Source: Desulfobacterales bacterium
GTDB lineage: Bacteria; Desulfobacterota; Desulfobacteria; Desulfobacterales; UBA11574
NCBI GenBank assembly: GCA_022340885.1
Contig: JAJDND010000159.1
Coordinates: 3,395 to 67,394 of the forward strand
Direction of reading: 5' to 3'
Length of the DNA: 64,000 nt
Position 1 is the first letter of the stretch. Every line of letters begins with the position of its first letter. A program made the translations under genes and the position numbers. This document shows positions 5,021 through 61,229 of this stretch, piece by piece. The notes under the pieces are model-generated. The model searched no databases. It was given only the letters and a program-made list of their open reading frames with translations, and was not told the origin of the DNA.

Positions 5021-5028
5021 ATCGCCGG

Positions 5029-6087: not shown

Positions 6088-6107
6088 TGCGCTGACGCTC
6101 TACCTTT

Positions 6108-9140: not shown

Positions 9141-9143
9141 ATC

Positions 9144-26700: not shown

Positions 26701-28245
26701 CTAGTTGACCTGCTGTTTTTCCTTTGCTGTCTTCATCGGGTTTTCCCGGGCCGCTTCATAATATTGCCACCCCCCGCCGAGCGCTTTATAAAGACGCACC
26801 AGATTCGTGGTCACGGCACCGTCACTTTGAACCAGTTGGTCCTGGAACGACAACAGCGAAAGCTGGGCGCTCAGCACGTTGTTAAAATCCACCAGCCCAG
26901 CCTGGTATCGATCCTTTGCCAAAAGATCGGCCCGGCGGGCCGCCTCCGTTGCCCTGGCTAGGAATTCGCGCCGGCGTTGTTCTTTGGCAAACGCCACGAG
27001 TATGTTTTCCACCTCTTCCTGGGCATTGAGTACGACGGATTCATATTGAATCAAAGCCCGCTCCTGGCGGGCGGTCTGCACCTTGATGTTCTGACGGATG
27101 GCGCCCGCATCAAAAACATTCCAAGAAACGTTTGGACCGAAGCTCCAGGCTCGACTGGACCATTTTAAAAAATCTTCACTTGAAACAGATTCAAGCCCGA
27201 TGGTTCCGAACAATTGAAATTTAGGATAAAGATCCGCCGTAGCCACGCCGATCACCGCGGTTTGGGCCGCCAGGTTTCGTTCCGCCCGCAGGATATCGGG
27301 CCGGTTGCGCAGCGTTTCCGCTGGTACGCCCACCGCAACCGTCATTGGAGGTACGGGAATCGGCGTGATCGTTTCAAGCTCTTGATGTAGTACACCGGGA
27401 TTTTCACCCAACAGGACCGCGAGCCGGTTTTTAGCCGCTTCCAGTGCGACTTGAAGCGTGGGTATTGCGGAACGGCTGCGCTCCAGGCTGTACAGGGCCT
27501 GCTGTACCGCCAACTCGTCACTAATGCCTGCCTCGTATCGTGAACGATTCCATTCATAGGTTTCCTGTTGTGTTTTGATATTCGCATGGGCGGCTGAAAG
27601 GCGAGCCTGATAAGTTCGTACGTCGATATAGTTAAGCGCCACTTCCGCCAGTAAGCTTACCAGCACATTGCGCAGCTCCGCCCGGGTGGCTTCGAGATTT
27701 GCCTGGGCAGCTTCCACTGTACGCCGTATGCCGCCGAAAATATCCAGTTCCCAGCTGGCATCAAAACCGGCCGCATAGAGTGTGCCGTCCGTCCTCGCCA
27801 CTCCGTTTTCACTGCTGCGCGCCTTTGTTACCGAAGCACCGGCGTCTATAGTGGGAAAAAGACCTGCTTTGCTGATGCCCCTTAAAGCTCTGGCTTCACG
27901 AAGCCTGGATTGAGCATCTTTTAACGCCAGATTCCCTTTGACGGCGCGTTCGACCAAACTGGTCAGTTCCGGATCATTGAGCGTCATCCACCAATGGGAC
28001 AGTGTTTTGAAATTCAAAGGACCCGGTCTCAGTCCGCTTTTAAGTTCGGCATGCCATTTTTCCGGGGCATTAGGCGTTACGGGCGTATAATCCGGTCCAA
28101 CGGGTGCGCAGTCGGTCAGAGTTAGAACAATAAAAACCGTCATAGTTAGAATTATCTGCCAACAGTTCATTGTCCGGGAGCCGTCCATACGTTTCGCTGG
28201 TTTGCCTTTTTTTGCATGCATCATCTTTGCCTTATTCGGCATCAT
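26701..28245 (-). CDS. RND efflux outer-membrane factor lipoprotein (NodT/OprM family)
   Basis: 514 aa maximal ORF. Signal peptide ending ...LTLTDC followed by [10 protein letters not shown], typical of NodT lipoproteins. Duplicated TolC-like coiled-coil repeats. The true start is probably an internal Met (for example 28188 or 28170). Confidence 0.9.
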
Positions 28246-31200
28246 GTTTATCCCTTATTTTGACCTTCCAGGCATGGCCTTTTTCACGGCCTGTTTGAAA
28301 TGAATAGTAGAGGGCCGGAATCAAAAAAATACCCATCAGCGTCGCCGCCAGCATACCGGAAAAAACGGTGGTGCCGATGGCCCGTCGACTGCTGGCGCCC
28401 GCACCGCTCGCGATAACCAAGGGCGCCACACCGAGAATAAACGTAAAAGCGGTCATCAACACCGGACGAAAACGGATCTTCGCGCCTTCAATGGCGGCCT
28501 TTTCCACCGAATATCCCTGTTCTCTCCGGTCCTTGGCGAACTCTACGATCAAAATGGCGTTCTTCGCAGCCAGGCCCACCAACAAAACCAGGCCGATCTG
28601 CGCGTAAATGCTAAAGCTGAGTCCGGCGATCCACAAACCGGCCAGCGCTCCCAGACTGGCCACCGGAATCGACAGGATAATGGAAAGGGGGATATTCCAA
28701 CTCTCGTATTGTGCCACCAGGAAAAGATAACCAAAAAGCAGCGCCAGCGCGAACAAATATGAAACTTTCCCGCCAGCCTTGCGTTCTTGAAAGGACATCG
28801 ACGACCAGTCAAATGAATAGCCGGGCGGTAGCGTCTTGGTCCCCAGGCGCTCCATGGAAGCCATGGCCTCTCCCGAGGAAAAACCTGGCGACGCATTGCC
28901 GTTGATCTGTACACTGGTGAACTGGTTATAACGGTAGACGATTTGGGGCGCCAGCACCGTGGACAGGGTGATCAGGCTTTTCATGGGCACCATTTTATTG
29001 TCGTCGCTTCGGACATACAGCCGGTTGATATCGTCCATCGTGTCCCGGTATCGGGCCTCTGCCTGAACATTGACCTGATAGGTCCTGCCGTACAGGTTGA
29101 AATCGTTGACATAACCTGAACCGAGATTTTTATTGAGCGTGCCAAAAACCCGGCTGACCGGCACTTTGAGCGTTTCGGCCCGGGTGCGGTCCAGATTCAC
29201 AAAAATCTGAGGCGTGTTCGCCGTATACGTCGAAAAGACCCGCATCAATGTCGGGTCCTGATTGGCAGCGATAACCAGAGATCGGGTCACCGCGGCGATG
29301 TCCCGGGGAGGCTGACTTTCAAGTACCTGAAGCCGAAAGTCAAAACCGCCTGTCGTTCCCAGACCGAATATGGGCGGCGGCGCAAAGGCAAAGATATTGG
29401 CCGAGGAAATACCGGCAAGTCTGGCCTGTGCCTGGCCGAGAACGGCCTCTAATTTCTGATTCGGACGGGTCCGTTGGTCCCATGGTTTCAGGACGACAAT
29501 ACCGAATCCGACATTTTCGGCCGTGCCGCTGAGCAGGCTGAATCCACTGACACCCAGAAAATCATCAATGCCGTCTATGTCTCGTAAGGCCGTTGTCGCG
29601 CGTTCCATAACCCTGTTGGTCCTGTCCAAAGTGGCGCCTTCAGGAAGCTGTGTATTGATAAAAAAGACCCCCTGGTCTTCCTGGGGCAAAAAGCTGGTGG
29701 GGCTGTGGCTGAAAATAAACCAGGCGGCGCCGATAACGCCGGCAAAGAGCAAAAATGCGACCATCAGCTTGCGAATGAGCCAAGCGGCGCCGGCGACATA
29801 CATATTGCGTGAGGTTTCCAGCGCCCGGTTGAACCAAGCCAGCGGACCGTGTTTCGGAATTTTCGGCGCTTTGAGCAAAACAGCACAAAGGGCAGGGCTT
29901 AATGTTAAAGCATTGATCGCCGAGATGACCACGGCCGTGCAAATGGTCACGGCGAATTGTTTATAAAGCTGGCCGGTGATGCCGGGCATGAACCCCACCG
30001 GCACGAACACGGCCAAAAGCACCAGGGTCGTAGCGACGATGGGTCCGGTGACCTGCCCCATGGCGTGAATGGTTGCCGCCTTTGCGCCGAGCTTTCGTTT
30101 ATCCATGACCCTGTATACGTTTTCAACGACCACGATGGCATCGTCCACCACCAGGCCGATGGCCATGATAAGGGCGAACAGGGAAAGGGTGTTGGCGGTG
30201 TATCCCAGCGCCAGCAAAACGGCAAAAGTACCGATAAGCGAGACCGGAATGGTGACCGTGGGGACCAGCGTGGCCCGCCAGTCTTGCAGAAAAATGAAGT
30301 TCACGAACAAAACCAGAAGAAAGGTAATGACAAGGGTCAGCTCGATCTCGTGAATCGCCGCGGAAACGTATTTGGTGGTATCGTAAAAAACATCGTACTG
30401 AACATCGCTGGGCTGCCGCTGTGCAAGATGGTTGAGTTCGGCCCGTACGGCTTTCATGGTATTCAGAGCGTTGGCGTTGGAAGACCGGTAGATTCCGATC
30501 GCCAAGGACGCCTGGCCGTTAAAAATCGACCGGGTGAGGTAGGATTTAGCGCCCAGTTCAACACGGGCCACGTCGCGAATTCTCACCAACCCACCTTGAT
30601 CATTGCTGCGGACGACGATGTTTTCAAATTCTTCAGGTTTGTCAAGCCGTCCTCTGGCTCGCAGGGTGTACTGGAGTTGTTGGCCGCTTTCCGTCGGCGA
30701 TGTTCCGATGGACCCCACTGCGGCCTGGATATTTTGCTGTCTTATGGCGGTGATCACGTCATCGGCGGTCAATCCCCGGGCGGTAAGCCGCTTCGGGTCC
30801 ATCCAGATACGCATGCTGTATTCAAACTCTCCAAAAATAAAAACATCGCTGACACCATTGATCCGCACCAGGGCATCTTTTATATTTCGGCTGACATAGT
30901 TGCTTAAAAAAAGCTTGTCTCGTGTACCTTTGGGAGAAAAGAATTCTACTGCCCCCAATATGTCTGTGGATCGCCTGCGCACATCGATACCCTGATCAAC
31001 CACCGATTGGGGCAGTTTGGAAGTGGCCAGCTGCACCCGGTTCTGCAGATTAACCTGATCGATGTCCGGATCAGTGCCCACTTCAAATGTGACGGCCAGG
31101 GTATATCGACCGTCGTTGGAGCAGGAGGAGGCCATGTAGAGCATTTTTTCCACGCCGTTGACTTCTTTTTCAATGGGCGCGGCGACATTGTCGGCCACAA

Positions 31201-31369
31201 CCCGGGCATTAGCGCCCGGATAGACGGCGGTGACTCGGATCTCCGGCGGTGTAATGTTGGGATACTGGGAAACGGGAATGTTATACAGTGCAATGAGTCC
31301 CGCCAGGGTGATGACGATGGAAATCACCATGGCAAGGCGCGGACGTTCAATGAATATCTGTGAAAACAT
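28232..31369 (-). CDS. RND multidrug efflux permease (AcrB/MexB, HAE-1 type)
   Basis: 1045 aa. [15 protein letters not shown]... N-terminus and TM4 motif [14 protein letters not shown]. 12-TM, two-large-loop architecture. Confidence 0.95.
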
Positions 31370-31372
31370 GGA

Positions 31373-32614
31373 TCATCTCCCTTGGTGTTCATCGGCGGTA
31401 ATGGTTTTCACAGTCTGACCGGGCCGGACTTTCTGAACGCCCTCAACGATGACCCTTTCATTGACGGATAGACCGGATTCCACGGCCCAGTTGGCCCCGA
31501 CCACGGGGCCGGTTTTAATCCGTCGCACGCCAACGCGGCTTTGATTATCCACCAGAAGAACATATCGTCCTTCGTGATCTTCCAGAACCGCCGTCTGGGG
31601 CACCACGGGCATGGGTTTCGGTGTGCTTTTAGTAACCAGAATGGTGACATACTGTCCTGGAAGCAAAGTGCCGTCGAGATTCTTAAACAAGGCCCGAACC
31701 GCAATGGTGCCCGTGGAAACATCCACGGTATTGTCCACGAAATCCACATGGCCTTTCATTTTGAGAATTTGACCGTCTGCCAGCTTGATTCTCGGCATCA
31801 GCATGGGATTTCTTTTACCCTTATCAGCATCTTTAAGGGCGATATGAACGGCGGAGAGATCGTTTTCGCTGATGGAATATACCACTCGAATCGGATCCAG
31901 TTGAACGATTCGGGCCAGAGTACCGGAATTGGGCCCGACCAAATTCCCTATTGTAAAAGCGGTTCGTCCGATGCGACCGCTGATGGGCGCCTTGATGGAT
32001 GTGTAGTTCAGATTGATTCGGGCGATTTGAAGATTGGCTTTAGCCTGCTCGAGCTGGGCTTTGGCGCGGAGTTCTTCGGCCACAGCATTATCCAGATCCG
32101 TTGCGGATATTCCGCCGGAGCGGACGTTTTGCGCCCGCCGGAGGTATTGCTGCGCCTTGGTGAGTATCGCTTCAGCCTGGGCCAGCGAGGCTTTGTCCGC
32201 ATCAACTTTGGCCAGGTAGGGCGCCTGTTCGATTACGTAGAGAAGATCCCCGGCGTGAACATCGCTTCCCTCCTTGAATTCGACCCTTTCCAGAAAACCC
32301 TCCACCCGGGCTCTTAGATTAACGCTCTGGACAGCCTCCACATGACCCACATATTCCGACGGAGGGTTGACATCCTGTTCGATCACCTTGGCGACTGTGA
32401 CCTGAGGCTGCGGTCCGGTTGTCGGACCAGCGGGTGCGGCTATTGCTTTACAGTGTATCCCGAGTATCAGCAGTATACTCAAAAACAAAATAGACGGTCC
32501 GTTTAAAAGGTCCCTCGCGTCTTTTTTGTTATACCGGGCTTCAGAATATTTGCTGTTGCCGTCAATCGCAGCGGTTGCCGTTTGAACACAACCGGATTTA
32601 AGCTTCATTCTCAT
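31373..32614 (-). CDS. RND efflux periplasmic adaptor (AcrA/MexA family)
   Basis: 413 aa maximal ORF. Lipoyl/hairpin/beta-barrel order (VEAVQSVNLRARVEGFLERVEFKEGSDVHAGDLLYVIE, coiled coil, YTSIKAPISGRIG). The start is uncertain. Confidence 0.9.
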   Translation of the reverse strand: MRMKLKSGCVQTATAAIDGNSKYSEARYNKKDARDLLNGPSILFLSILLILGIHCKAIAAPAGPTTGPQPQVTVAKVIEQDVNPPSEYVGHVEAVQSVNLRARVEGFLERVEFKEGSDVHAGDLLYVIEQAPYLAKVDADKASLAQAEAILTKAQQYLRRAQNVRSGGISATDLDNAVAEELRAKAQLEQAKANLQIARINLNYTSIKAPISGRIGRTAFTIGNLVGPNSGTLARIVQLDPIRVVYSISENDLSAVHIALKDADKGKRNPMLMPRIKLADGQILKMKGHVDFVDNTVDVSTGTIAVRALFKNLDGTLLPGQYVTILVTKSTPKPMPVVPQTAVLEDHEGRYVLLVDNQSRVGVRRIKTGPVVGANWAVESGLSVNERVIVEGVQKVRPGQTVKTITADEHQGR

Positions 32615-33920: not shown

Positions 33921-36900
33921 TTAAAACAGCTTTAACTGCCGGTGGCCGGTTTCGGTTTTTTTTGACGGCGCCATCGTTTCATGGGTAACCAAATTTTCTT
34001 CGATTTCACGGACAAACGGCGACAGGGTCTGCTTCTTGATTTTCCCGAATCTTTTTCGTGTTTTTGAAAAGGTGATAAAAAGGCGATGTTTGGCGCGGGT
34101 CATGGCGACATAAAACAGGCGCCGTTCCTCTTCGAGGTTCGAGGGTTCGTTATATACGGATTGAAACGGCAGCAAACCGTTTTCACAGCCACAAATAAAA
34201 ACCACCGGAAATTCCAGCCCTTTTGAAGCGTGCATGGTCATCAATGAAACGCATTCACATTGATATTGGTACATATCGGTATCTGTCTGTAATGCGCAAG
34301 TTTTCAAAAAATCTTTGGCATCGGTATCGGAATGTGTATAAAGATCGATCACGTGCTTTAAAGCACGTTCTGTTTTTTGATCCCATTGCTCAGAATTTGA
34401 CAACCGAGTGTAATCTAAAATAAAAAGAAGCTTTTCCCCCATGGATAGGTTATGTATCCTATGTTTTATTTTAAAAATTTCGCCGGTTACATCAACAATC
34501 TTTGTTTGCAGTGTTCTTCCCATCTCTTTAATGGGAATCCTGCGGACATGTATCAGCGCAGTTTCCAGCGACATTCGTTTCCCGATGCACCAACTTTTGA
34601 AAATTTGCAGAGATTTTTTTGCCAGCGTCGGTTTGATTATTTTCGAGCTTCTTTCAAAGTCGGAAAAACTTCCGGTTCCCTCCACCACTTTTAATAATGA
34701 CACCAGATTGCCGATGCTTTCTGAATGGAGTATATTTTCTCTGCTCACGGTTTGATAAGGAATACCTGCGGCATCGAAAATTTGTGACAACACCTTGTTT
34801 TGTTCCGAAGTGCGATACAGAACGGCAAAATCAGAAAATCCCAAATTTTCCTGAAACGGTTGTTCTCGAACATGACCAAAATCAATGGAATGAAACCCTG
34901 TGCCCCCCATCAGTTGTTCTATGTTTTTTCCGATGGCTACCGCTTCTGATTTTTCAGAATTTGCCTCGATAACAGAAATCGTTTTTTTACCGCTTATTTC
35001 TGAATAGATGCGTTCTTTAAATGAAATTTCGCCCTGCGCTTGAATCACTTGATAGGAACCGTCGAGAATGGTCTGGGTCGATCGGTAGTTTTGCGTCAGT
35101 TTGATGATTTGCGCATCCGGATAATCGTTAACAAAGCGGTTGAAATATTCGGCGCTCGATCCTCTGAATCCATAAATGCACTGGTTAGGATCACCGACGA
35201 CACAAATTTTTCTATCGAGGCCGGGTGGAACAAGGGCTTTGATGATCCTGTACTGGCCGTGATTTAAGTCTTGATATTCGTCCACAAAAATATATTGAAA
35301 AAACTTCCGATATGAATCGGTGACGTGATTATTTTTCTCGAGCAGGCGAACGGTTTTGAATATCAGATCCTCATAATCGCAAAGACTTTGTATGGCCAAC
35401 AATTCTTGATAGGACTGATAGACTGCGTGAAAATATTTTTTCTTTGGATCGTCGGTATGCTTTAACCATTCATTGGGATCCAGAATGTTTTGCTTGGCGG
35501 AGATGATCTGTTCAAGCAACTTTTTGGGTTTGATATGTATTGAATCCAGCGATGTTTTGGCCTGTTTGATGGCATCGTTTAACAAAAGTTCACGATCTTT
35601 TTCGTCAATGACCGTATAGGCGTCGTTTTCCTGTTGCTTTAAAATATGAAAGCAAAGGCTGTGAAACGTTCCGACGAAAGCCTTTGTTTTCGTTTTTTTC
35701 AACAGTCGTTCGAGTCGGTGGCGCATTTCAAGGGCCGATTTATTGGTGAATGTTACCGCAAGGATATTTTCCGATGGAACATTTTTTTCCAGGGTAAGAA
35801 AGGCCATTTTATGGGTCAGCGTTCTGGTTTTGCCGGTTCCGGGACCCGCAATGATGATCATCGCCTTTTCGTTATTTTTCACGGCACGGCGCTGTTGGCG
35901 ATTCAGCGCTATGGTGTAGTCTTTTTCTGCTGCCGGCGTTTGAGACCCATCTTTTAAGAATTTATGAAATAATAAAGATGCAGTCGGTTTTTGATATTCC
36001 TTTTTTTGTATATTCTCGTTGGTCCGGGATGCTTTTACAAAAAACAAAGGTTTTTGCCTGTTTAGCTTTTGTCGTTCTTCTGAATCGAATATTTTTATTT
36101 TTCCGAATTCTCCATCATAACCGGGCAATAGAACGATGTCGTTCTGTCTTACTTTCGTGATGGCGTCGCTCAGCAGGGGAAGACCCGCGGAATCTATTTT
36201 ATCATTGTCCAGCGTCGTTAAAATGTCCAATTCAGACCCCAATTTTTCAAGCAAATCTTTATAGGTTTCCATTACTTTTTTTGAGGTCGGACCGACGTTC
36301 AACACTTCGGACAAGATTTCGACAAGTGGAATCGCATTGAAATACGGATGGTGGCTTTTAGGTTTGACCCCCGGCGGTCGATCCGCCAGTTCCTCAACCC
36401 GGTACAACACGCCCAAGGTCATCGGTTTATTACAGACCGGGCACATGCCGCCAGACTTCTTTGTTTTATCGGGCCAGGAGCGGACTTGACAATTCCGATG
36501 ACCGTCAAGATGATATTTTCCTTCCTCCGGATAAAACTCCAGCGTACCGATGAATCTTTTGGGATCCCCGCTTTGGAGTGCGGATCTTATGGCCGAAAAT
36601 GACAATTGGGTATCAAACAGGTTTGCTTCCCTTCCCAGTTTTAATGGTGAATGGGCATCGGAATTGGAAATCAGTGTCATCCCGTCCAGTGCCGAGACGC
36701 GCCAATTCATTTCAGGATCCGAAGAAAGACCTGTTTCAACGGCAAAGATATGAGACGTGAGATCCTCGAAACATTCATCTATAGAATCGAAACCTGATTT
36801 TGAACCCAACAGCGAAAACCACGGCGTCCAAATATGAGCGGGTACGAGAAACCCACTATCGTCGGTTTCGAGAAGCATTTCCAAAAGATCCCTGGCATCA

Positions 36901-37325
36901 AGACCCAGTATCGGCCGGCCGTCGGATTTGATATTTCCGATCTTATCGAGTTTTGAAGCAAAATTATCCGCCTGATTAACATCAGACAAAAAAACAAGAT
37001 TATGATTCTTTCGGGTCTTTTTATTTTTCTTGTAGATATTGCTGATTTCAGAAACCAGCATAAAGCGCACTTCTCTGCGGCACGACTCAGGTACCTGTCG
37101 ATCGCATTGTCTTGAAAATTCTTTTTTCAATTCAAACAGTCCGGATTCCGCAGGCACCAGTTTTTCTTTGATTTCCGCCAACCAGCCCGGATGCGTAAAA
37201 TCGCCAGTCCCGATAACGGTGATGCCTTTAAGCTGAGCCGCAATATATAAGCTTTCAAGATCCAAATTTTTTGACGTTGCTCTTGAAAAACGAGAATGAA
37301 CGTGAAAATCCGCTACAAATTTCAT
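33921..37325 (-). CDS. Fusion protein: N-terminal PHP-domain EndoQ-like nuclease + C-terminal UvrD/PcrA-type SF1 helicase
   Basis: 1134 aa. Residues 1-~415: FHVHSRFSRATS, VPAHIWTPW, NSDAHSP, and an H-x2-C-x15-C-x2-C cluster (GHRNC...CPVC). Residues ~470-1134: AGPGTGKT, VDEYQD, MTMHASKGLEFPVVF, YVAMTRAK. Confidence 0.9.
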   Translation of the reverse strand: MKFVADFHVHSRFSRATSKNLDLESLYIAAQLKGITVIGTGDFTHPGWLAEIKEKLVPAESGLFELKKEFSRQCDRQVPESCRREVRFMLVSEISNIYKKNKKTRKNHNLVFLSDVNQADNFASKLDKIGNIKSDGRPILGLDARDLLEMLLETDDSGFLVPAHIWTPWFSLLGSKSGFDSIDECFEDLTSHIFAVETGLSSDPEMNWRVSALDGMTLISNSDAHSPLKLGREANLFDTQLSFSAIRSALQSGDPKRFIGTLEFYPEEGKYHLDGHRNCQVRSWPDKTKKSGGMCPVCNKPMTLGVLYRVEELADRPPGVKPKSHHPYFNAIPLVEILSEVLNVGPTSKKVMETYKDLLEKLGSELDILTTLDNDKIDSAGLPLLSDAITKVRQNDIVLLPGYDGEFGKIKIFDSEERQKLNRQKPLFFVKASRTNENIQKKEYQKPTASLLFHKFLKDGSQTPAAEKDYTIALNRQQRRAVKNNEKAMIIIAGPGTGKTRTLTHKMAFLTLEKNVPSENILAVTFTNKSALEMRHRLERLLKKTKTKAFVGTFHSLCFHILKQQENDAYTVIDEKDRELLLNDAIKQAKTSLDSIHIKPKKLLEQIISAKQNILDPNEWLKHTDDPKKKYFHAVYQSYQELLAIQSLCDYEDLIFKTVRLLEKNNHVTDSYRKFFQYIFVDEYQDLNHGQYRIIKALVPPGLDRKICVVGDPNQCIYGFRGSSAEYFNRFVNDYPDAQIIKLTQNYRSTQTILDGSYQVIQAQGEISFKERIYSEISGKKTISVIEANSEKSEAVAIGKNIEQLMGGTGFHSIDFGHVREQPFQENLGFSDFAVLYRTSEQNKVLSQIFDAAGIPYQTVSRENILHSESIGNLVSLLKVVEGTGSFSDFERSSKIIKPTLAKKSLQIFKSWCIGKRMSLETALIHVRRIPIKEMGRTLQTKIVDVTGEIFKIKHRIHNLSMGEKLLFILDYTRLSNSEQWDQKTERALKHVIDLYTHSDTDAKDFLKTCALQTDTDMYQYQCECVSLMTMHASKGLEFPVVFICGCENGLLPFQSVYNEPSNLEEERRLFYVAMTRAKHRLFITFSKTRKRFGKIKKQTLSPFVREIEENLVTHETMAPSKKTETGHRQLKLF
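33924..33938 (-). other. C-terminal QLKLF: candidate beta-clamp-binding motif of the nuclease-helicase
   Basis: The minus strand reads cag tta aag ctg ttt taa, giving Q-L-K-L-F-stop. This fits the clamp-binding consensus QL[S/D]LF / QLxLF at the extreme C-terminus. Confidence 0.55.
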
Positions 37326-37707
37326 ATCTCCATCACAATTTAGGGTGTGAAACTTAAGTTGTTCGTTTTGTATTAAAAACTCTTGTCACAAGTCCTTAAA
37401 CAGTATATATATTTATATTAACTAAATTAAAATACCATATATGGTATATTTTGATTTTTTTTTAAGCTTTAATATAAGCGTCAGTGGTGCTGCCTTTTAT
37501 ATTGATATTTTTTCGATAAATCATTACTTATGAACAATAAATTTTATTCCTTTGATAATCTATTATTTATTTAAACGCTTCTTGGTTTTTATAAACAAAA
37601 TAAAAATGGTTATTTTTTAGTAAAATAAATAGGTTATGAAATTATTATATATATCGACATTCTTTTAATATAATATTATCTAAAGATATATAAATAAGGA
37701 ATAGAGA
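37326..37707. other. Extremely AT-rich divergent intergenic region (promoters of the nuclease-helicase and dnaN; possible DNA-unwinding or origin-associated element)
   Basis: Counted example: only 8 G/C in the 60 nt 37621-37680. Long A/T runs throughout. I found no canonical DnaA box (TTATCCACA). Confidence 0.3.
37432..37447. repeat. Perfect 16-bp palindrome ATACCATATATGGTAT
   Basis: Read directly from the sequence. It is self-complementary over all 16 positions and sits centrally in the AT-rich spacer. Confidence 0.6.
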
Positions 37708-41261
<3,554 letters not shown>

Positions 41262-41294
41262 CGGCCTTTCGTTTGGAGGAGAGAAGGAAAATCG

Positions 41295-42086
41295 ATGTAT
41301 ATACATAAGATTCAGGCAAGGGATTTACCGGATCTTTGGTTTCAGGCGGTTCATGATATTCTGGATCATGGCAGAAAGTTTACCATCGACCGCGGAAGTT
41401 ATGCTGGACAGACAAGACTCGAATATGATTTTTTTACGGGTCACATTAAATATCCGGGCACCCATCCACTGATACCCGACATACCCCCGGCATGCGGTAT
41501 CCCGAATCCTGTTGAAGAAGCTTATATTTACGGTGGTGACGGCTATGAAAGATCGTATATCGAATATGTCATGACCGGTCAAAAAGAACCCGGTGAATCC
41601 TATACCTATGGAGAAAGGCTCACACGAGCGCCGATTTCCGAGGAAAAGCTTCGGTGGTGGAAGGAAGGAAACGCGGAAATTATCGATAAAAGAGACGTGG
41701 ACGGACGAGCGGTTTTTGAAGAGGATGGACAGCTTTTTTTAAATCAAATCGAATGGATCATTCAAACCTATCAAAAATATGGAAGAAGAAACAATCAAAT
41801 GGTACTGCAAGTGGCGCATCCGTCGGATCTAACACTTCTGGATCCGCCGTGCCTGCGTTCCATCGATACCCGAATTCAAGATGACGCGCTTCATTTTATC
41901 GTGTATTTTCGTTCATGGGATTTGTGGGGAGGCATGCCGGCGAATCTGGCCGGAATACAAAATCTAAAAGAATACATGGCTGGCGAAATAGGGGTTAAAG
42001 ACGGTGAAATGATCGTCGAAAGCAAGGGGCTTCATCTTTACGGGTATGCGGAAGAGCTGGCGAAACTAAGGTGTATGAAGACTTAA
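41295..42086 (+). CDS. thyA: Thymidylate synthase, divergent (archaeal-like) ThyA-family enzyme
   Basis: 263 aa. DPPCLRSID (catalytic Cys), YFRSWDLWGGMPANLAG (compare YQRSCDVFLGLPFNIAS in E. coli ThyA; the Asn is retained, implying dUMP specificity), GLHLYGY (compare THLYSN), and GRRN (the RR pair). GGAGGAG RBS. Confidence 0.78.
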   Translation: MYIHKIQARDLPDLWFQAVHDILDHGRKFTIDRGSYAGQTRLEYDFFTGHIKYPGTHPLIPDIPPACGIPNPVEEAYIYGGDGYERSYIEYVMTGQKEPGESYTYGERLTRAPISEEKLRWWKEGNAEIIDKRDVDGRAVFEEDGQLFLNQIEWIIQTYQKYGRRNNQMVLQVAHPSDLTLLDPPCLRSIDTRIQDDALHFIVYFRSWDLWGGMPANLAGIQNLKEYMAGEIGVKDGEMIVESKGLHLYGYAEELAKLRCMKT

Positions 42087-42092
42087 AATAGA

Positions 42093-42159
42093 GTTCAGTG
42101 TTCAGATTTCAGAACCGTATCATTGCCCTTTCTGAACGCTGAACCCCTGAACACTGAAC
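42093..42159. terminator. Nested inverted-repeat element built from GTTCAG/CTGAAC hexamers between convergent thyA and asnS; probable bidirectional terminator
   Basis: The outer arms GTTCAGTGTTCAG (42093-42105) and CTGAACACTGAAC (42147-42159) are perfect complements. The inner arms are TTCAGAA (42108-42114) and TTCTGAA (42130-42136). CTGAAC occurs four times in a row at 42133-42159. Confidence 0.45.
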
Positions 42160-42173
42160 GCTTATTTTTAAAA

Positions 42174-43593: not shown

Positions 43594-45006
43594 TTACAGC
43601 CTGACGCTGATATGATAAAGCTGATCTTTTCTCTGTAGCAAGATGACCAGCGACTTTCTTTTACGGAATTTTATCGTTGCTTTTTTAAAATCTTTCGTGT
43701 TCTTTATCGTGAATTCATCGATTTGGCGGATAACATCTCCGGGTTCGGCGCCGATGCGGGCGAGATACGACTGCGGATTCAGCTCTGAAATCAAGACGCC
43801 TTCTTGAGCGTAGATCTTATAGGTGTAACGCGTGTTCTTGGTAAGATTTTTTACCTTAATCCCGAGAATATCGTAAGCTAGCTCCATTGCCAGATCCTCG
43901 GGAAATGCCGTCGACCGGACAGTAAACATTTTTTTTTGGCCGTCTCTTAACACACCGATGTCAAGAATTTCTCCGGCAGAAATATTGCTCATCGCGGTAT
44001 TAAAATCGTTTTGTGACAAAATCTTTCGAGAACCGACAGACTGAATAATATCTCCCACATGTATTCCGGATCTAAAGGCAGGTCCGGATGATTCTGTTTT
44101 TTTTACCAATACGCCTTTAGCGCCCGCTGCCTTTAAATACTTAGCCAGGTCGGCATCCAGATTTTGAACGGTGATGCCGATCCATGCCGGGACCACTTCC
44201 CCATACTTTATAAGATCTGAAACGACTCTTTTTGCTTTATCGATCGGTATGGCAAACCCGATCCCCTGGGCTTTGGCATATATTGCGGTATTAATGCCGA
44301 TGAGTTCACCGTATATGTTCAAGAGCGGTCCGCCGCTGTTTCCCGGGTTAATGGAAGCATCCGTTTGAATGAAATCGCGATAGAATGTATTGTCGACGTT
44401 TACGCTTCGATTGACAGCGCTGATCACGCCGGTGGTAACCGTGTTTGAAAAACCAAAAGGGTTTCCGATGGCGATAACGGTTTCTCCGATCAAAAGATTG
44501 CCGGAATCGCCCATTTTTATATTCGGAAGCACACCTTTCGGAGAAATTCGCAACACCGCCAAATCAGAATCCGGATCTGCACCGATGATGTTTGCCTTAA
44601 ATTCACGCCCGTCTTTTAATGTAACGGTAATGGTCGAGCTTTTAATAATCACATGCTTATTGGTAAGAATAAACCCTCGTTTGCCGTCTATTATCACCCC
44701 AGATCCGAGGCTGGTCCGCTTATACTTTTGTTCGTAGCCTGGATCGAAAAAGTCTTTAAAAAAAGACTCAAAATTCGGATCCAACCCTAATCCGTAAAAG
44801 GGATTCACACGTTTATGGACTTCTGACTGCGAGCTGATGTTAACTACTGCCGGACTGACTTTTTTGACGGCTTTTACAACCGCACTTTCCCTCAGGTTTT
44901 CAGCGAAGCTGTTGGTCGGGACGATCAGGCAAAACATAATAAATAGATCAAAAAGCAACACCGCCGCGATGAAAAAGAAATTGTTTTGCGTTTTTATTTC
45001 TGGCAT
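43594..45006 (-). CDS. Do/HtrA-family periplasmic serine endopeptidase with two PDZ domains
   Basis: 470 aa. N-terminal membrane anchor, GSGVIIDGKRGFILTNKHV (His), DSDLAVL (Asp), TDASINPGNSGGPLLN (Ser), then two PDZ-like segments. Confidence 0.92.
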   Translation of the reverse strand: MPEIKTQNNFFFIAAVLLFDLFIMFCLIVPTNSFAENLRESAVVKAVKKVSPAVVNISSQSEVHKRVNPFYGLGLDPNFESFFKDFFDPGYEQKYKRTSLGSGVIIDGKRGFILTNKHVIIKSSTITVTLKDGREFKANIIGADPDSDLAVLRISPKGVLPNIKMGDSGNLLIGETVIAIGNPFGFSNTVTTGVISAVNRSVNVDNTFYRDFIQTDASINPGNSGGPLLNIYGELIGINTAIYAKAQGIGFAIPIDKAKRVVSDLIKYGEVVPAWIGITVQNLDADLAKYLKAAGAKGVLVKKTESSGPAFRSGIHVGDIIQSVGSRKILSQNDFNTAMSNISAGEILDIGVLRDGQKKMFTVRSTAFPEDLAMELAYDILGIKVKNLTKNTRYTYKIYAQEGVLISELNPQSYLARIGAEPGDVIRQIDEFTIKNTKDFKKATIKFRKRKSLVILLQRKDQLYHISVRL

Positions 45007-45061
45007 TTTGAGCTCCGGTATAATACATTATGCACTTAAATTTCTAAAAAGAATATATATC

Positions 45062-47563
45062 ATGAGCATAAACAGCATTCAAGACATCTTACAGCTGGTC
45101 GAACAGCCCAGTCGATATTTAGGTTCTGAAATCAATGCCGTAAAAAAAGATCACAACACGGTCGATTTGCTTTTTGGGTTGGTCTTTCCGGATCTTTATG
45201 AGATCGGAACTTCTCATTTCGGTCTTCAGATCCTCTATCACATCCTCAACACGCATCCGGATATCGCAGCGGAAAGGATCTTTGCACCGGCATCCGATAT
45301 GGCCGCTTATCTGAAATCATCCGGCATATCCCTTGCTTCTCTGGAATCCAAAAAGCCGCTTGCAGAATTTGATATTATCGGCTTCAGTCTTCTTTATGAA
45401 CTTAACTATACGAATATACTTAACATGTTGGATTTATCCGGTCTTCCCTTTCTTGCGCGGGAGCGGGATTTATCTTCTCCTTTTATCGTTGCCGGCGGTC
45501 CTTGCATGTGTAACCCGGAGCCTGTCGCCGATTTTTTTGACGCCATCGTCATCGGAGACGGTGAAAACGTCATCATGGACATGTGTCTGGACTGGTTTGA
45601 ATGGCGGAAAAACGATGCTCGCAATAAAGACGCGCTTTTGAAGCTGTGGTCTCGGATCAAAGGTGTCTATATACCGGCTTATTTTAAGCCAAAATTCGGT
45701 CTTTCGGGTTTTCAGAGGATCTTTCCCAGGTTTAATGATTACCAGCGAATTGATAGAGCGGTTGTCGGAGATCTCGACGAAGCGCCGTTTCCGGATATAC
45801 CCGTCATACCCTATGCCAAACCGATTCACGACCGGTTAAGACTGGAGGTCTCAAGAGGATGCACACGAGGGTGCCGCTTTTGTCAGGCCGGTATGATATA
45901 TCGACCGGTTCGTGAGCGGTCTTTGGGTAAACTACTTTCACTGTCTGAGGCTTCCGTTAATGCAACGGGTTATGAAGACATATCTCTTTTATCTCTAAGT
46001 ACTGGGGATTATAGTTGTATTCAGCCATTAATGGAGAGCATGATGACCTTGTACGGTCACCGGCGCATCGCCCTTTCCTTTCCGTCTTTAAGGGCGGGTA
46101 CGTTGACTCCAAAGTTAATGAAGCTCGTAAAAAAGGTCAGAAAGACCGGTTTTACAATCGCTTTGGAAGCGGGAAGCCAGCGGCTTCGAGATGTCATTAA
46201 TAAAAATATCCAGGAAAAAGACATCTTCGATACCATAAACGATGCCTTTGGCTTGGGGTGGCAGGTCGTAAAATTATATTTTATGGTCGGCCTTCCTACA
46301 GAGACGGATGAGGATGTGCAGGCGATTGTTGACCTTGTGAAAAGGATCAACGCTCACCGGCGGAAAAGCAGGCCTAACAGTCATATCAATGTCAGCGTTG
46401 CGACCTTTATCCCCAAACCGCATACCCCTTTTCAGTGGCTCCCTCAAATTTCTTTGGGCGAATCAAAAGAAAAAATTTCGCTGTTGAAACAAAAGCTTAA
46501 CATCTCAGGGGTTCGCTTCAAATGGCAAAATCCCGAGGTCAGTCTTGTGGAAGGACTTTGGGCGAGGGGTGATCGGCGACTCGGCCGATTACTGGTCACT
46601 GCCTGCAAGAAAGGGTGTCGATTTGACGGCTGGAGTGACCAGTTCAAATACCGGTTGTGGGAAGCCTCTTTTTTGGAAGAGGACGTCAATGTAGATTTTT
46701 ATACGACGCGTGCAAGAGATGCGGCGGAGCCGCTGCCGTGGGACCATATCGACACCATGGTTACAAAGGAATATCTTATTGGAGAATGGGAAAGGGCCGT
46801 AAAGGGAGAGCCGACGAAAGACTGCAGAAACGGCGATTGTAATCAATGCGGGGTATGTGATTTTCAAACCGTAAAGCCCTTCGTGAATGCTGACTGTAAA
46901 GGTCAATCCCCGAATAATCTTGTTACCACACACCAACCGGCCGGAGAATATGGAAAACTTAAGATATCCTTTTCAAAACAAGGGATGGCGAAGTATTTCG
47001 GGCATCTTGAAATGGTAAAAATTTTCTTGCGCGCCATTCGCCGGGCCGAAATTCCGGTCAAATATTCCAAAGGATTTCATCCAAAACCGAACATATCTTT
47101 TGAGGATCCCCTTCCAGTCGGCTTAGAAAGTTTGATGGAAACATTTTATTTGTCCACAGAAAAGAACATCGAACCGGCGCTCATCGTCGAAAGATTAAAC
47201 AAACACCTTCCTGAGGGATTGCATATTCTAAACTGCCGGCCGGCTTCCAAAAATCTTTCCCAAAAAACTTTCGAGCCCGTCAATTATTCGATAACCCTGA
47301 AGAACATGTGTTTCAATGAAGAACAAATAAACGATTTTCTTAACCGGAAAACCTTTATATTCTCACGGCTGAATCGAAAAGGAAAATCCAAAACAATCGA
47401 TTTAAAGGAGATGGTATCTAAGCTAACGCTGCCGGCACCCAATAGGCTGCTTGTAAGCCTGAGAACAGAACCCGGAAAGACGGTGAGACCGTTAGAGGTT
47501 CTAGAGAAAATTTTCGGATTGCCCGAGGAAGAGATCCGGCAGGCGCAGATGGTTAAACTATAA
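45062..47563 (+). CDS. Radical SAM protein (B12-binding-like N-domain + rSAM core, TIGR03960-like) fused to a DUF2344/TIGR03936-like C-terminal domain
   Basis: Start at ATG 45062 (MSINSIQDILQLVEQPSRYLGSEINAV). The ORF-track start at 44837 overlaps htrA antisense. The CX3CX2C motif CTRGCRFC is at 45860-45883. From about 46950 onward: ISFSKQGMAKYFGHLEMVKIFLRAIRRAEIPVKYSKGFHPKPNISF. Confidence 0.87.
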   Translation: MSINSIQDILQLVEQPSRYLGSEINAVKKDHNTVDLLFGLVFPDLYEIGTSHFGLQILYHILNTHPDIAAERIFAPASDMAAYLKSSGISLASLESKKPLAEFDIIGFSLLYELNYTNILNMLDLSGLPFLARERDLSSPFIVAGGPCMCNPEPVADFFDAIVIGDGENVIMDMCLDWFEWRKNDARNKDALLKLWSRIKGVYIPAYFKPKFGLSGFQRIFPRFNDYQRIDRAVVGDLDEAPFPDIPVIPYAKPIHDRLRLEVSRGCTRGCRFCQAGMIYRPVRERSLGKLLSLSEASVNATGYEDISLLSLSTGDYSCIQPLMESMMTLYGHRRIALSFPSLRAGTLTPKLMKLVKKVRKTGFTIALEAGSQRLRDVINKNIQEKDIFDTINDAFGLGWQVVKLYFMVGLPTETDEDVQAIVDLVKRINAHRRKSRPNSHINVSVATFIPKPHTPFQWLPQISLGESKEKISLLKQKLNISGVRFKWQNPEVSLVEGLWARGDRRLGRLLVTACKKGCRFDGWSDQFKYRLWEASFLEEDVNVDFYTTRARDAAEPLPWDHIDTMVTKEYLIGEWERAVKGEPTKDCRNGDCNQCGVCDFQTVKPFVNADCKGQSPNNLVTTHQPAGEYGKLKISFSKQGMAKYFGHLEMVKIFLRAIRRAEIPVKYSKGFHPKPNISFEDPLPVGLESLMETFYLSTEKNIEPALIVERLNKHLPEGLHILNCRPASKNLSQKTFEPVNYSITLKNMCFNEEQINDFLNRKTFIFSRLNRKGKSKTIDLKEMVSKLTLPAPNRLLVSLRTEPGKTVRPLEVLEKIFGLPEEEIRQAQMVKL

Positions 47564-49224: not shown

Positions 49225-49359
49225 ATGAAACGAACTTACCAGCCAAGCAAAATTAAGCGAGCAAGAACCCACGGGTTTTTAAAAAGGATGTCCACAAAAC
49301 AGGGCAGAAAGATTATAAACAGGCGCAGATCAAAAGGAAGAGCCCGTTTAACGGTATAA
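49225..49359 (+). CDS. rpmH: 50S ribosomal protein L34
   Basis: Not in the ORF track (44 aa). My hand translation is [44 protein letters not shown]-stop, which reads as canonical L34. Confidence 0.95.
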
Positions 49360-49418
49360 ACAGAGTTGCTCGAAAAAATACAATATAAATAACAGCGGGT
49401 TGAGCAAAGGAGTCATTA

Positions 49419-49772
49419 TTGCGCTTTTGGTTTACCAAGGCGGACAGATTAAGAAAACGTTCCGAATTTCTTAGGCTGGCCAACCAGGGGAAAAAAATTC
49501 AAGACTCAAATTTTATTGCCGTATACTCTCAGAACCGAATTCAAAGAACCCGCCTTGGTGTCACCGTAGCGAGAAAAGTTGGAAATGCCCCAACACGCAA
49601 CCGGATCAAAAGATTATCTCGCGAATATTTTCGGCTAAACAGGCAAACAATTACAGGGCATTGGGATATTAATATTATTGCCAAAAAAAAGGCTGCGAAC
49701 CTGTCGTCAGAACAGGTATTTTTATCCCTAAAAAACATTTTACATAATATATCCAGGAGCTTATATCATTAA
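49419..49772 (+). CDS. rnpA: Ribonuclease P protein component
   Basis: 117 aa. TTG start preceded by AAAGGAG (49406-49412). [14 protein letters not shown]..., [28 protein letters not shown] (the RNR motif). It follows rpmH as in most bacteria. Confidence 0.9.
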
Positions 49773-49794
49773 CAAAATCTTCATTATACCGGCC

Positions 49795-49989
49795 TTGATC
49801 CTGATCAGAGGCTATCAGTTGATCGTGTCTCCGGTCACAGCTCCTGCATGCCGTTTTTATCCAACCTGTTCAGAGTATGCCTATCAGTCTATTTTGCGCT
49901 ATGGATTTCTTAAGGGATGTTATCTTGCGTTAAGGCGACTTTTAAAGTGTCATCCCTTTCATCCGGGAGGAATCGATCCTGTTCCATAA
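49795..49989 (+). CDS. yidD: Membrane protein insertion efficiency factor YidD
   Basis: [62 protein letters not shown] is a textbook YidD sequence. The start (TTG 49795) is uncertain; the frame is open further upstream but has no ATG. Confidence 0.88.
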
Positions 49990-50173
49990 AGTCAGCTTGT
50001 TTGAAAAAGGACCAGGTTTGAATTAAAGCATTCCGATTCATAACAGAAATGTTTGGGCCCTCCGTCTTAAAATCCTGCACCGATGCCGGCTCCGCTTAAC
50101 CTCAATTACATACAGTTTAACTCATCTGAATAAAAGGAATATGTTTGCTTCAAATTGAATCTTGGAGAGGATA

Positions 50174-51841
50174 ATGGAACACGCACGACTACTTATTGCC
50201 ATCGTACTTTCTCTGCTTGTTTTTATTGTTTGGAATGCGTTTTTTCTGGATAAGGAGCAGAAAAAACTTCCCAAACAAAACATAAAAACCCAGGAGCAGG
50301 TCACAAAGGGCTCGGAAAAAACCGCAAAAGAAACAACCGAAACAAAAGCGGCCTTGCCCGAATCGACAACACCGGCAAAAACACCCGCTTTAGAATCGGT
50401 CGCGTCTTCACGAACCATTACGGTCAATCTGCCTTTGTACACGGTAAAAATATCTACAAAAGGCGCTGTGTTCAGAAGTTTCGTGCTCAAAAAGTATCGA
50501 AAAACCATTAAACCCGATTCACCTTTGCTGGACATGATCAATCCGGATTTGACCCAAGGAACAGTACGGGTCGGGTATGCTGAAAATAGCATTCAAGGAC
50601 TTGATAATGCAGTTTTTTCGGCTCATCTGAATAAAGATGCCGTCGATATTAAAGATAAACCCACACCAATCGTCTTTTCTTGGAAATCCCCCCGGGGCGT
50701 CGTGGTTGAAAAGAGATTTTTGTTTTCCCCCAAAACCTATACGATCGGTCTCGATGTTATCATTAAAAACAGCTCCGCACAGCCGATTAAAGACAGCCTG
50801 ACCCTGTCTTTGTTAAAAAAAGGACCGGAAAACGCAAGCAGATACGGTTTTGAAGGGCCGAGCGCGCTGATAAACAACAAGCTCGAGGAGATCAAGATCA
50901 AGAAGATTAAAAAACAAGACGTCTATCCGGGGAAATTGGAATGGATTGCCATCCAAGGCCGTTATTTTCTTTCCGCCGTTATGCCCAATGAAGCGATCGA
51001 CGCCCGTATGCACCTTAGCAATGGGGGCGACATCCTGACGAACACATATGTCCAGCCGGAACAAACGATTCTTCCCGATCAACAACATGTTTTTAAATAT
51101 AAAGTCTTTTTTGGGCCCAAAAGCATGGCCGTGCTAAAGTCCGTAGACTATGACCTCATCAAGGCCGTGAATTTTGGCATGTTTGACATCCTTGCCAAGC
51201 CTTGCGTTTATATCATGAATTATATCTACAAATTCATCCCCAACTATGGGGTGGCCATCATTATTTTGACATTACTCTCCAAAATTATTTTATGGCCCCT
51301 GGGTAATAAGAGCTATAAATCAATGGCTCAAATGAAAAAAATTCAACCGTTGATGGCGGAAATCAAAGAGAAATATAAAGATGACAAGAAAAAAATGAAT
51401 GAAGAGATGATGGGGTTATATAAAACATACAAGGTGAACCCCCTGGGCGGATGTCTTCCGATGGTTGTGCAAATTCCGGTGTTTTTTGCCCTTTACAGGA
51501 TGTTGTATGGCGCCATCGAACTCAGACATGCGCCGTTTATATGGTGGATTAACGACCTGTCGGCGCCCGATCGCCTCTTCAGATTCGATTTTCACATCCC
51601 CTTTATGCAGCCGCCGTACGGAATTCCGGTTTTAACGATAATTATGGGGGTGACCATGTTTATTCAACAAAAAATGTCGCCGCCGGCTGGCGATCCTACT
51701 CAGGCAAAAATGATGATGTTGATGCCGATTGTTTTTACCGTAATTTTTATCAATTTTTCTTCGGGACTTGTTCTGTACTGGCTGGTCAATAATGTCATTT
51801 CCATGATTCAACAGTATTACATTCAGAAGAAAAACGCTTAA
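50174..51841 (+). CDS. yidC: Membrane protein insertase YidC
   Basis: ATG at 50174 is preceded by GGAGAGG. N-terminal TM, large periplasmic domain, and a conserved core (KMKKIQPLMAEIKEKYKDDKKKMNEEMMGLYKTYKVNPLGGCLPMVVQIPVFFALY). Confidence 0.93.
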   Translation: MEHARLLIAIVLSLLVFIVWNAFFLDKEQKKLPKQNIKTQEQVTKGSEKTAKETTETKAALPESTTPAKTPALESVASSRTITVNLPLYTVKISTKGAVFRSFVLKKYRKTIKPDSPLLDMINPDLTQGTVRVGYAENSIQGLDNAVFSAHLNKDAVDIKDKPTPIVFSWKSPRGVVVEKRFLFSPKTYTIGLDVIIKNSSAQPIKDSLTLSLLKKGPENASRYGFEGPSALINNKLEEIKIKKIKKQDVYPGKLEWIAIQGRYFLSAVMPNEAIDARMHLSNGGDILTNTYVQPEQTILPDQQHVFKYKVFFGPKSMAVLKSVDYDLIKAVNFGMFDILAKPCVYIMNYIYKFIPNYGVAIIILTLLSKIILWPLGNKSYKSMAQMKKIQPLMAEIKEKYKDDKKKMNEEMMGLYKTYKVNPLGGCLPMVVQIPVFFALYRMLYGAIELRHAPFIWWINDLSAPDRLFRFDFHIPFMQPPYGIPVLTIIMGVTMFIQQKMSPPAGDPTQAKMMMLMPIVFTVIFINFSSGLVLYWLVNNVISMIQQYYIQKKNA

Positions 51842-51857
51842 TAACGGAGGTTCTATC

Positions 51858-59948: not shown

Positions 59949-59951
59949 GTC

Positions 59952-61079: not shown

Positions 61080-61229
61080 GACCGACTCCTTGAAAAATAC
61101 GAGCAATTGTGATACAATACATTGTATTTATTGTGTATATGGTTTGCGAATTTGAATTCCCCACCACTTGCATTACGCGATAAATTCAAATAGCGGCATA
61201 GCCGCGTTTCATAAAATCGTTGCACGATT

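Follow-up and report, generated by a model that had tools for sequence, protein, structure and literature searches.

We describe here a gene block at positions 33921–42159 of a 64-kb window, the whole stretch of Desulfobacterales DNA analysed, in which replication genes coincide with unusually AT-rich sequence. Read along the forward strand, a minus-strand gene that fuses endonuclease Q (EndoQ) to a UvrD-type helicase is followed by an AT-rich spacer, by dnaN, gyrB and a thyA-like gene on the plus strand, by asnS and degP on the minus strand, and by a radical-SAM gene, rne and, further on, yidC and jag. A first-pass annotation of the sequence had offered two explanations for such a low-GC replication block: composition specific to the locus, or a horizontally acquired, possibly second, replication and repair module. 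We are confident that the block is not a genomic island: it is native to this uncultured member of the Desulfobacterales, has been inherited vertically and forms a core locus close to the probable origin.

The two central genes are standard members of their families. dnaN (37708–38826, +) encodes a 372-aa DNA polymerase III beta sliding clamp that matches all three Pfam beta-clamp domains and scores 275 bits against TIGR00663 (cut-off 137.65), and gyrB (38823–41261, +) encodes an 812-aa DNA gyrase subunit B of the long Gram-negative type (NF011501, 1151 bits against 796). Both products are full length and above the curated family cut-offs, and the 4-bp overlap of their genes suggests a single operon. 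Neither dnaA nor recF accompanies them, as had been noted for the block itself: tblastn searches with the Bdellovibrio DnaA and RecF proteins found neither gene anywhere in the 64 kb, and the same queries detected dnaA in loci of more distant Desulfobacterota, so that the sensitivity of the search was adequate. About 8 kb downstream of the block lies rpmH-rnpA-yidD-yidC-jag-mnmE (49225–54051, +), a classic gene set of origin neighbourhoods, in which YidC, Jag and MnmE were identified by Pfam, and rpmH (44 aa), rnpA and yidD were assigned from their translations and their position before yidC. Together with asnS and rne, this set surrounds the block with single-copy core genes.

The low guanine-plus-cytosine (GC) content of the block is real. 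Eight 60-nt lines counted by hand in the first-pass annotation, inside the block and outside it, were all exact on recount (20, 22, 19, 21, 21, 24, 34 and 33 G+C), and over its full length the block has a GC content of 0.405 against 0.482 in the rest of the window. It is essentially the lowest-GC stretch of its size in the 64 kb, about 1.9 standard deviations (sd) below the average of 0.468 (sd 0.033) for all windows of 8.2 kb, of which the lowest (0.402) starts at 32951. Measured against 45 genes of the window (GC 0.479 ± 0.045; GC at third codon positions, GC3, 0.531 ± 0.063), dnaN is at GC 0.366 and GC3 0.391 (−2.5 and −2.2 sd) and gyrB at 0.402 and 0.415 (−1.7 and −1.8 sd). In both genes GC is low not only at third but also at first and second codon positions (GC1 and GC2), and protein composition therefore contributes to the dip. 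The helicase gene (GC 0.428, GC3 0.450; −1.1 and −1.3 sd) and the thyA-like gene (0.453 and 0.428; −0.6 and −1.6 sd) are compositionally ordinary for this genome and agree in GC with the core genes on the right (0.444). The lowest value in the window, 0.209, belongs to the 382-bp spacer upstream of dnaN (37326–37707), and the low core, made up of spacer, dnaN and gyrB, extends over approximately 37.0–41.3 kb.

The block had also been described as a discrete compositional unit bounded by two convergent gene junctions, and this part of the description did not hold. Both junctions exist (the cfa stop at 33896 faces the helicase stop at 33921, and the thyA stop at 42086 faces the asnS stop at 42174), and neither is a compositional edge. 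On the left, the GC step is found at about 32.5 kb, at the junction of cfa with the gene for a membrane fusion protein (MFP), where GC falls from 0.556 to 0.418 and cfa (0.447) stands on the low side. On the right, the thyA-like gene hardly differs from asnS (GC 0.462, GC3 0.519) or from the flank at 42–56 kb (0.444). The sharp contrast on the left arises because a high-GC efflux operon of the resistance-nodulation-division (RND) type, with outer membrane factor (OMF), RND and MFP genes (26701–32614, −; GC 0.54), lies next to cfa, and the apparent right edge arises because the asnS line that had been sampled (34/60) is atypical of asnS. As a separate observation, the high-GC parts of the window (0.50–0.57) correspond to three efflux or transport operons (955–6803, 26701–32614 and 56694–62627), consisting of one ABC-2/HlyD/TetR system and two RND systems, and the RND operon at 26.7–32.6 kb has a GC skew opposite to that of its minus-strand neighbours; these three operons, rather than the dnaN block, may be accessory or acquired segments.

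Comparison with homologous loci identifies the dip as a recurrent property of this position in the chromosome. The loci compared (numbered with the prefix L) include contig neighbourhoods of EndoQ and ThyA homologues, among them megabase-scale contigs and one closed metagenome-assembled genome (MAG; CP070652.1). With the loci aligned at the start of dnaN and GC given as the deviation from each locus mean, the same trough, located on the spacer upstream of dnaN, appeared in 10 of 10 homologous loci, with local GC contents of 0.39–0.52. The mean deviation is −0.163 in the 500 bp upstream, −0.056 and −0.072 within dnaN, and negative through most of gyrB, in which bin +2000 exceeds the locus mean in nine of the ten loci and bin +2500 falls short of it in all ten. 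Across 42 diverse loci, dnaN has a lower GC content than its flanks in 76% (mean −0.032), and in the nearest relatives the difference reaches −0.07 to −0.14. A transfer that preceded the divergence of the clade would have ameliorated, and a trough that tracks the GC content of each genome points to a continuing local cause, in favour of the locus-specific alternative raised in the first-pass annotation. The dip is a conserved property of the locus with three parts, namely an extremely AT-rich divergent control region, dnaN and, to a lesser degree, gyrB. A dnaN poorer in GC than the DNA on either side is seen in most of the bacteria sampled, and the difference is marked in this clade. Protein composition and AT-rich control or origin DNA may be the causes, through mutation or selection. 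The largest dip of the 42 loci was seen in L013, from a Trichloromonas sp. MAG, in which dnaN (7757–8875 of that locus) has a GC content of 0.288 against 0.539 in its flanks (−0.25) and the surrounding dnaA, recF and gyrB have normal GC; this dnaN may be a foreign-gene replacement or an assembly chimera.

Gene order and protein divergence agree with vertical inheritance. The arrangement of EndoQ (with or without UvrD), spacer and dnaN-gyrB-thyA-like recurs in L007 and L087–L093, the gene order of block and flank being kept, whole or in part, in seven Desulfobacterales relatives, and the same contig arrangement was found in several metagenomes. The right flank is shared in part, with asnS present in L087 and L089–L092, and the radical-SAM gene, rne and yidC in L090 and L091, in both of which yidC and jag are in the same order; the left neighbours of the EndoQ-UvrD gene differ in L088–L092. 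The block is thus in place among relatives rather than patchy in distribution. Identities to the window proteins are 90.0% for GyrB, 91.6% for the ThyA-like protein, 87.0% for AsnS and 86.8% for Cfa in L087 (rne is not in the locus); 73.5%, 83.7% and 74.7% for GyrB, ThyA-like and AsnS in L092 (cfa and rne not in the locus); and 68.1%, 84.0%, 69.1% and 70.4% for GyrB, ThyA-like, AsnS and Rne in L091 (cfa not in the locus). Judged from these pairwise identities, the proteins of block and flank diverge in parallel. DnaN is 51–81% identical to its Desulfobacterales orthologues, and for GyrB the closest relatives in a set of species-representative genomes reach 73%, 69% (Desulfosudis oleivorans), 68% and 63% (Desulfobacula). 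The top GyrB relatives belong to the Thermodesulfobacteriota/Desulfobacterales and those of other phyla reach about 50–55%, a ranking that follows taxonomy.

The absence of dnaA finds its explanation in the same comparison. The nearest relatives (L007, L008 and L010) also have no dnaA upstream of dnaN, more distant Desulfobacterota keep dnaA-dnaN-gyrB, and the missing dnaA is therefore a clade trait and not the sign of an extra copy. Hallmarks of mobility were sought as well: the 64 kb contain no tRNA, the direct repeats that could bound the block are only short chance-level matches, and no integrase or transposase occurs among the block genes and their immediate neighbours, all of which have housekeeping, transport or metabolic domains. 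An origin of dnaN from a phage or plasmid was considered and rejected, as the best phage or plasmid DnaN is 31% identical; many of the 'plasmid' matches are in fact chromosomes. With conserved synteny, parallel divergence and a taxonomic GyrB ranking, neither horizontal acquisition nor a second copy is supported.

The outer genes of the block require a more differentiated account. The gene on the left (33921–37325, −) is divergent from dnaN and encodes 1134 aa. Its EndoQ domain, of the PHP type (approximately aa 1–420; 36066–37325, −), matches Pyrococcus furiosus EndoQ over residues 5–415 (PDB 5zb8 and 7k30; E about 1e-50, for 5zb8 6.5e-52), scores 168 bits against TIGR00375 (cut-off 326.6), and in the alignment with the P. 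furiosus enzyme conserves the D/H-x-H motif (DFHVHS), E76, H84, H139 (PAHIWTPW) and SNSDAHSP, together with a zinc site of the form H-x2-C ... C-P-V-C. Residues 473–1113 match PcrA (1pjr; E 2e-91) and the Pfam UvrD-helicase and UvrD_C families, with scores far under the equivalog cut-offs for PcrA (461 against 911), UvrD (362 against 1144) and Rep (390 against 951) that place the helicase, by family model, in a separate subfamily of superfamily 1A (SF1A), outside the PcrA, UvrD and Rep equivalogs. The protein ends in QLKLF-COOH (33924–33938, −), a canonical beta-clamp-binding pentapeptide, and the terminus QL[KSQ]LF was found in six of six orthologues (QLKLF in the window, L007, L087 and L092; QLSLF in L091; QLQLF in L088, after a frameshift). 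A second candidate clamp-binding motif, QKPLF (aa 424–428; 36042–36056, −), is located just after the EndoQ domain; GQ[KR]xLF stands at the same position in L007, L090 and L091 and also at the C-terminus of many protein entries that consist of the EndoQ domain only, whether stand-alone or truncated. The label 'clamp-binding nuclease-helicase' given by the first-pass annotation thus agrees with the motifs, the binding itself being predicted.

EndoQ and helicase are fused in L007 and L091 and are split into adjacent genes in L093 (8001–11438; 419 and 710 aa), and L089 has EndoQ alone (8001–9278). In the relatives the EndoQ or EndoQ-UvrD gene is always divergent from dnaN, and every helicase-bearing form examined ends in QL[KSQ]LF. 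Such fused, split and neighbouring occurrence, known as a Rosetta-stone pattern, links the two activities. Archaeal EndoQ nicks DNA 5' of deoxyuridine, deoxyinosine and abasic sites, and the sliding clamp PCNA stimulates it by way of a PCNA-interacting (PIP) motif at its C-terminus; among bacteria, Bacillus and Desulfovibrio have known homologues (PMC4357722, PMC5961232, PMC8307549). Public records name proteins of the kind found here 'endonuclease Q family' or 'UvrD-helicase domain-containing', and our literature search found no paper on an EndoQ-UvrD fusion.

On the right, the thyA-like gene (41295–42086, +) encodes a divergent 263-aa thymidylate synthase of the ThyA family (Pfam PF00303, 40.2 bits against 24.3). 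The earlier description of this gene as archaeal-like is supported at the level of family models, since the best model is the methanogen-type TIGR03283 (94.9 bits, under the cut-off of 174.55) and bacterial ThyA models give at most 36 bits. The protein falls below every curated ThyA equivalog cut-off, bacterial or methanogen type. Aligned with solved ThyA structures, it keeps the catalytic residues: the Cys of PPC, RSxD (here RSWD), the Asn of PAN and H-x-Y (HLY). Its identity across the Desulfobacterales is 79–92%, against 68–90% for GyrB, and it is thus the more conserved of the two; more than 4,400 homologues exist, which public records name 'thymidylate synthase'. It looks like a member of a divergent, seemingly uncurated ThyA subfamily, as judged by model scores and residues.

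These affinities raise the possibility that the outer genes alone are foreign, EndoQ and the methanogen-type ThyA being ancient archaeal transfers that flank a native dnaN-gyrB pair, have been inherited vertically since, and have nothing to do with the low GC content. EndoQ is mainly archaeal, its transfer to a few bacterial groups including Desulfovibrio has been proposed (PMC4357722, PMC5961232), the best ThyA model is that of methanogens, and L008 and L010 have dnaN-gyrB without either gene. Against this stand the thousands of bacterial homologues of both proteins and the ordinary GC content of both genes. We regard such transfers as conceivable, with the odds somewhat against them; they would complement, rather than compete with, the conclusion that the block is native, and they leave the low GC content unexplained.

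The convergent gap between thyA and asnS contains a hairpin (42085–42167) built of heptad-like (GTTCAG)n/(CTGAAC)n repeats. The CTGAAC inverted repeat reported there is genuine, with arms of 21 nt that are 86% complementary, a folding energy of −28.6 kcal/mol and a z-score of −6.5. It is unique in the window, present in the same-species contigs L001–L003 and half-decayed in L087. The hairpin is probably a bidirectional terminator, to judge from its position and predicted fold. Its interpretation as the end of a mobile element was rejected on account of this distribution, and a LexA-type operator, considered for the GTTC...GAAC inverted repeat, was set aside because its spacing is unlike that of known LexA boxes.

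The spacer between the divergent EndoQ-UvrD and dnaN genes is a candidate origin of replication (oriC) or unwinding or control region. The homologous spacers of nine relatives have GC contents of 0.17–0.29. In the window, L087, L007 and L089, only AT-rich spacer separates the two genes; in many other relatives two small genes intervene (L088 6484–7809; L090 4618–5816; L091 4714–5863; L093 6277–7682; L010 7392–8545), one an open reading frame (ORF) of 204 aa (RdgC-like in L010, PF04381, E 3e-10) and the other an ORF of 174–186 aa without family.

DnaA-box-like 9-mers of the form TTATNNACA are enriched about tenfold in 10 dnaN-upstream spacers (24 against 2.5 expected) and occupy aligned positions, namely an inverted pair approximately 17 bp apart and one site about 50 bp before the dnaN ATG. 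The pair in the window (37511–37536) consists of TTATCGAAA (37511–37519, −) and TTATGAACA (37528–37536, +) and aligns with TGTTCATAA-N8-TTATGAACA of L007 and L089; similar inverted pairs occur in L092 and L008. L013, which keeps dnaA-dnaN, has TTATCCACA (−) and TTATCAACA (+) at the equivalent place, and relatives that retain dnaA-dnaN carry TTATCCACA and TTATCAACA in the same spacer. Two further box-like 9-mers of the window are TTATAAACA (37589–37597, +) and ATATCGACA (37651–37659, +), the latter about 50 bp upstream of the dnaN ATG in an alignment column occupied by TTATGAACA in L007 and L089, TTATTAACA in L088 and ATATTAACA in L087. The variant boxes are clear in L008 and in the higher-GC L090, which has about six boxes in 120 bp, including TTATCAACA, TTGTTCACA and TTATCGACA, and are weak in the window. 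The spacer also contains a palindrome, the inverted repeat AAAATACCATA/TATGGTATATT (37429–37450), which is kept in L087 and L007 and resembles TATACCATATAT of L092; possible roles are those of a regulator site or promoter element.

A further line of evidence comes from GC skew. Controlled for gene strand, the skew difference across the spacer has the same size in the window (+0.034 ± 0.007) and in eight relatives (+0.034 ± 0.006), and it persists when dnaN and gyrB are left out (+0.028 ± 0.007 and +0.022 ± 0.006, respectively). The skew is lower to the left of dnaN than to the right in all eight relatives, and at coarse resolution a sign change lies near the spacer in these and in the window. 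An oriC adjacent to dnaN and remote from dnaA, with species-specific boxes, has precedents in Sorangium and cyanobacteria (PMC2650636). Taking boxes, skew and gene context together, we lean slightly towards the view that the spacer is oriC or part of it, in a lineage whose dnaA lies away from dnaN.

Several observations weigh against this account of the locus. No canonical DnaA box TTATCCACA with up to one mismatch occurs in the spacer; the motif TTATNNACA was chosen after inspection of the data; and in the window itself such sites are scarce and weak, with 2 found where 0.3 would be expected (P about 0.04). The cumulative-skew minimum falls at 28.9 kb and not at 37.5 kb, followed by a flat course from 29 to 38 kb, and 64 kb is short for skew analysis. 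The dinucleotide signature is most deviant, among 4-kb segments, at 36–40 kb (delta* 71.9; mean 44.2, sd 15.2), a value nearly equalled by the RND operon (69.2) and by 56–60 kb (69.8), and the tetranucleotide correlation is the lowest in the window at the block. Over the whole window, 26 matches to TTATCCACA were counted with up to one mismatch allowed; the expected number is 14.3 ± 3.2, 0 of 100 shuffles reached 26, and the matches show no obvious clustering. A perfect box is found at 62721, in an intergenic gap of 600 bp, and another at 22653, within a gene.

It is accordingly worth asking whether the locus is native and the spacer only a divergent promoter or operator, with the dip due to promoter AT content and to the amino-acid and codon composition of DnaN and GyrB, and with oriC elsewhere, beside a relocated dnaA. 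The missing canonical box and the displaced skew minimum speak for this alternative, as do the low GC1 and GC2 of dnaN and gyrB and the conserved fine GC pattern within gyrB, which is expected if protein sequence dictates composition; moreover, DnaA boxes upstream of dnaN can be purely regulatory. The alternative does not account for a skew effect that has dnaN at its centre, here and in eight of eight relatives, and survives removal of dnaN and gyrB, for the conservation of the box pair together with the adjoining AT-rich tract, or for the classic origin gene set 8 kb away, and the known dnaN-adjacent origins without dnaA argue against it too. We consider it rather unlikely. That the block is a recent island or second module from a low-GC donor, as the GC minimum, the deviation of dnaN, the oligonucleotide signatures, the two convergent junctions, one of them with a strong hairpin, and the missing dnaA and recF might suggest, is most improbable in view of the conserved synteny with congruent protein divergence, the taxonomic ranking of relatives, a trough present at GC contents from 0.39 to 0.52 that amelioration would have erased, the absence of mobility hallmarks, the distant phage and plasmid homologues, the essential single-copy genes all around and the dnaA-less dnaN loci of L007, L008 and L010.

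If the native locus does contain the origin, the degenerate TTATSAACA-type boxes of the conserved inverted pair would be bound by DnaA, and the adjoining AT-rich DNA would unwind. The EndoQ-UvrD protein, in turn, might nick 5' of deoxyuridine, deoxyinosine or abasic sites and then unwind from the nick, tethered through its terminal QLKLF to the beta clamp encoded next door. A bolder proposal, which we put forward as a speculation that is probably wrong, is a replication-coupled 'uracil control' module at a dnaA-less Desulfobacterales origin, in which a clamp-tethered EndoQ-UvrD and a methanogen-type ThyA bracket dnaN-gyrB and share an AT-rich control region with degenerate DnaA boxes. If this were true, repair capacity and the supply of thymidine monophosphate would be co-regulated with initiation, and the AT trough could reflect deamination-prone single-stranded DNA at the origin.

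Some further features of the window and of the loci compared are recorded here. Directly 3' of mnmE, at 54163–54900 (+), lies an ORF of 245 aa that matches no Pfam family at E ≤ 1e-6. In its longest form (44837–47563), the radical-SAM/DUF2344 ORF would overlap degP by 170 bp, and the start in public gene calls (45062; 45062–47563, 833 aa) is the more likely one. A scan of the whole window with Rfam gave nothing at gathering thresholds. The 802-aa ORF of L007 is a penicillin-binding protein. L080 and L081 contain gyrB relatives, with 59–62% best-segment identity, on contigs binned as ANME-2 and Woesearchaeota archaea, which could represent bacterial contamination of the bins or a bacterial-type gyrase in archaea.

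The value of the analysis lies partly in the removal of a false lead, a low-GC stretch of replication genes that resembles an island being here the native neighbourhood of the probable chromosomal origin. The case shows that a strong, heritable shift towards AT can affect dnaN and its immediate upstream DNA, and composition-based island finders would misflag such a locus. The compositional feature is real but ordinary; modest interest is added by a candidate origin, with an unusual box variant, in a clade of uncultured Desulfobacterales whose dnaA is no longer next to dnaN, and by an uncharacterised bacterial EndoQ-UvrD enzyme with a conserved, predicted clamp-binding tail.

Among known systems, genomic islands share with the block a locally low GC content and, within the window, the most deviant di- and tetranucleotide signature; the block differs in having no integrase, tRNA or flanking direct repeat, in being conserved in place across the order and in step with its flanks, and in consisting of essential genes. 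EndoQ from P. furiosus (PfuEndoQ), TkoEndoQ and the enzyme of Bacillus pumilus resemble the N-terminal part of the fusion protein by full-domain homology, the catalytic Glu and His and the PHP motifs. Here, however, the domain is fused to a UvrD/PcrA-like helicase (in L093 it is encoded just upstream of one) and the first zinc ligand is His, not Cys; archaeal EndoQ binds the PCNA clamp via its C-terminal PIP motif (PMC5961232), and the protein described here has instead the predicted beta-clamp motif QLxLF. With PcrA, UvrD and Rep it shares the complete 1A/1B/2A/2B core of SF1A helicases, but the match to PcrA stops at position 645 of a 725-position model, the C-terminal part being replaced by a short tail that ends in QLKLF, and a nuclease has been added at the N-terminus.

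For the locus as a whole, the canonical dnaA-dnaN-recF-gyrB cluster provides the first point of reference. As in that cluster, dnaN-gyrB lies near (about 8 kb from) rpmH-rnpA-yidD-yidC-jag-mnmE, and in more distant Desulfobacterota dnaA-dnaN-gyrB has been retained and DnaA boxes lie between dnaA and dnaN. In contrast, neither the 64 kb nor the loci of the nearest relatives contain dnaA or recF, a ThyA-family gene follows gyrB, and EndoQ-UvrD replaces dnaA as the upstream neighbour. A closer parallel is offered by the origins that Ori-Finder and DoriC predict for Sorangium cellulosum and for cyanobacteria such as Microcystis, where dnaN is immediately preceded by an AT-rich intergenic region, dnaA is not a neighbour, the skew changes nearby, and repeats and species-specific DnaA-box variants are present (PMC2650636). 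The Desulfobacterales spacer departs from these origins in that its boxes (TTATGAACA, TTATCAACA and TTATCGACA) are off consensus at position 6, usually a conserved C, that the boxes in the window are few, that the spacer is shared with the divergent EndoQ-UvrD gene, and that the skew is known here over 64 kb.

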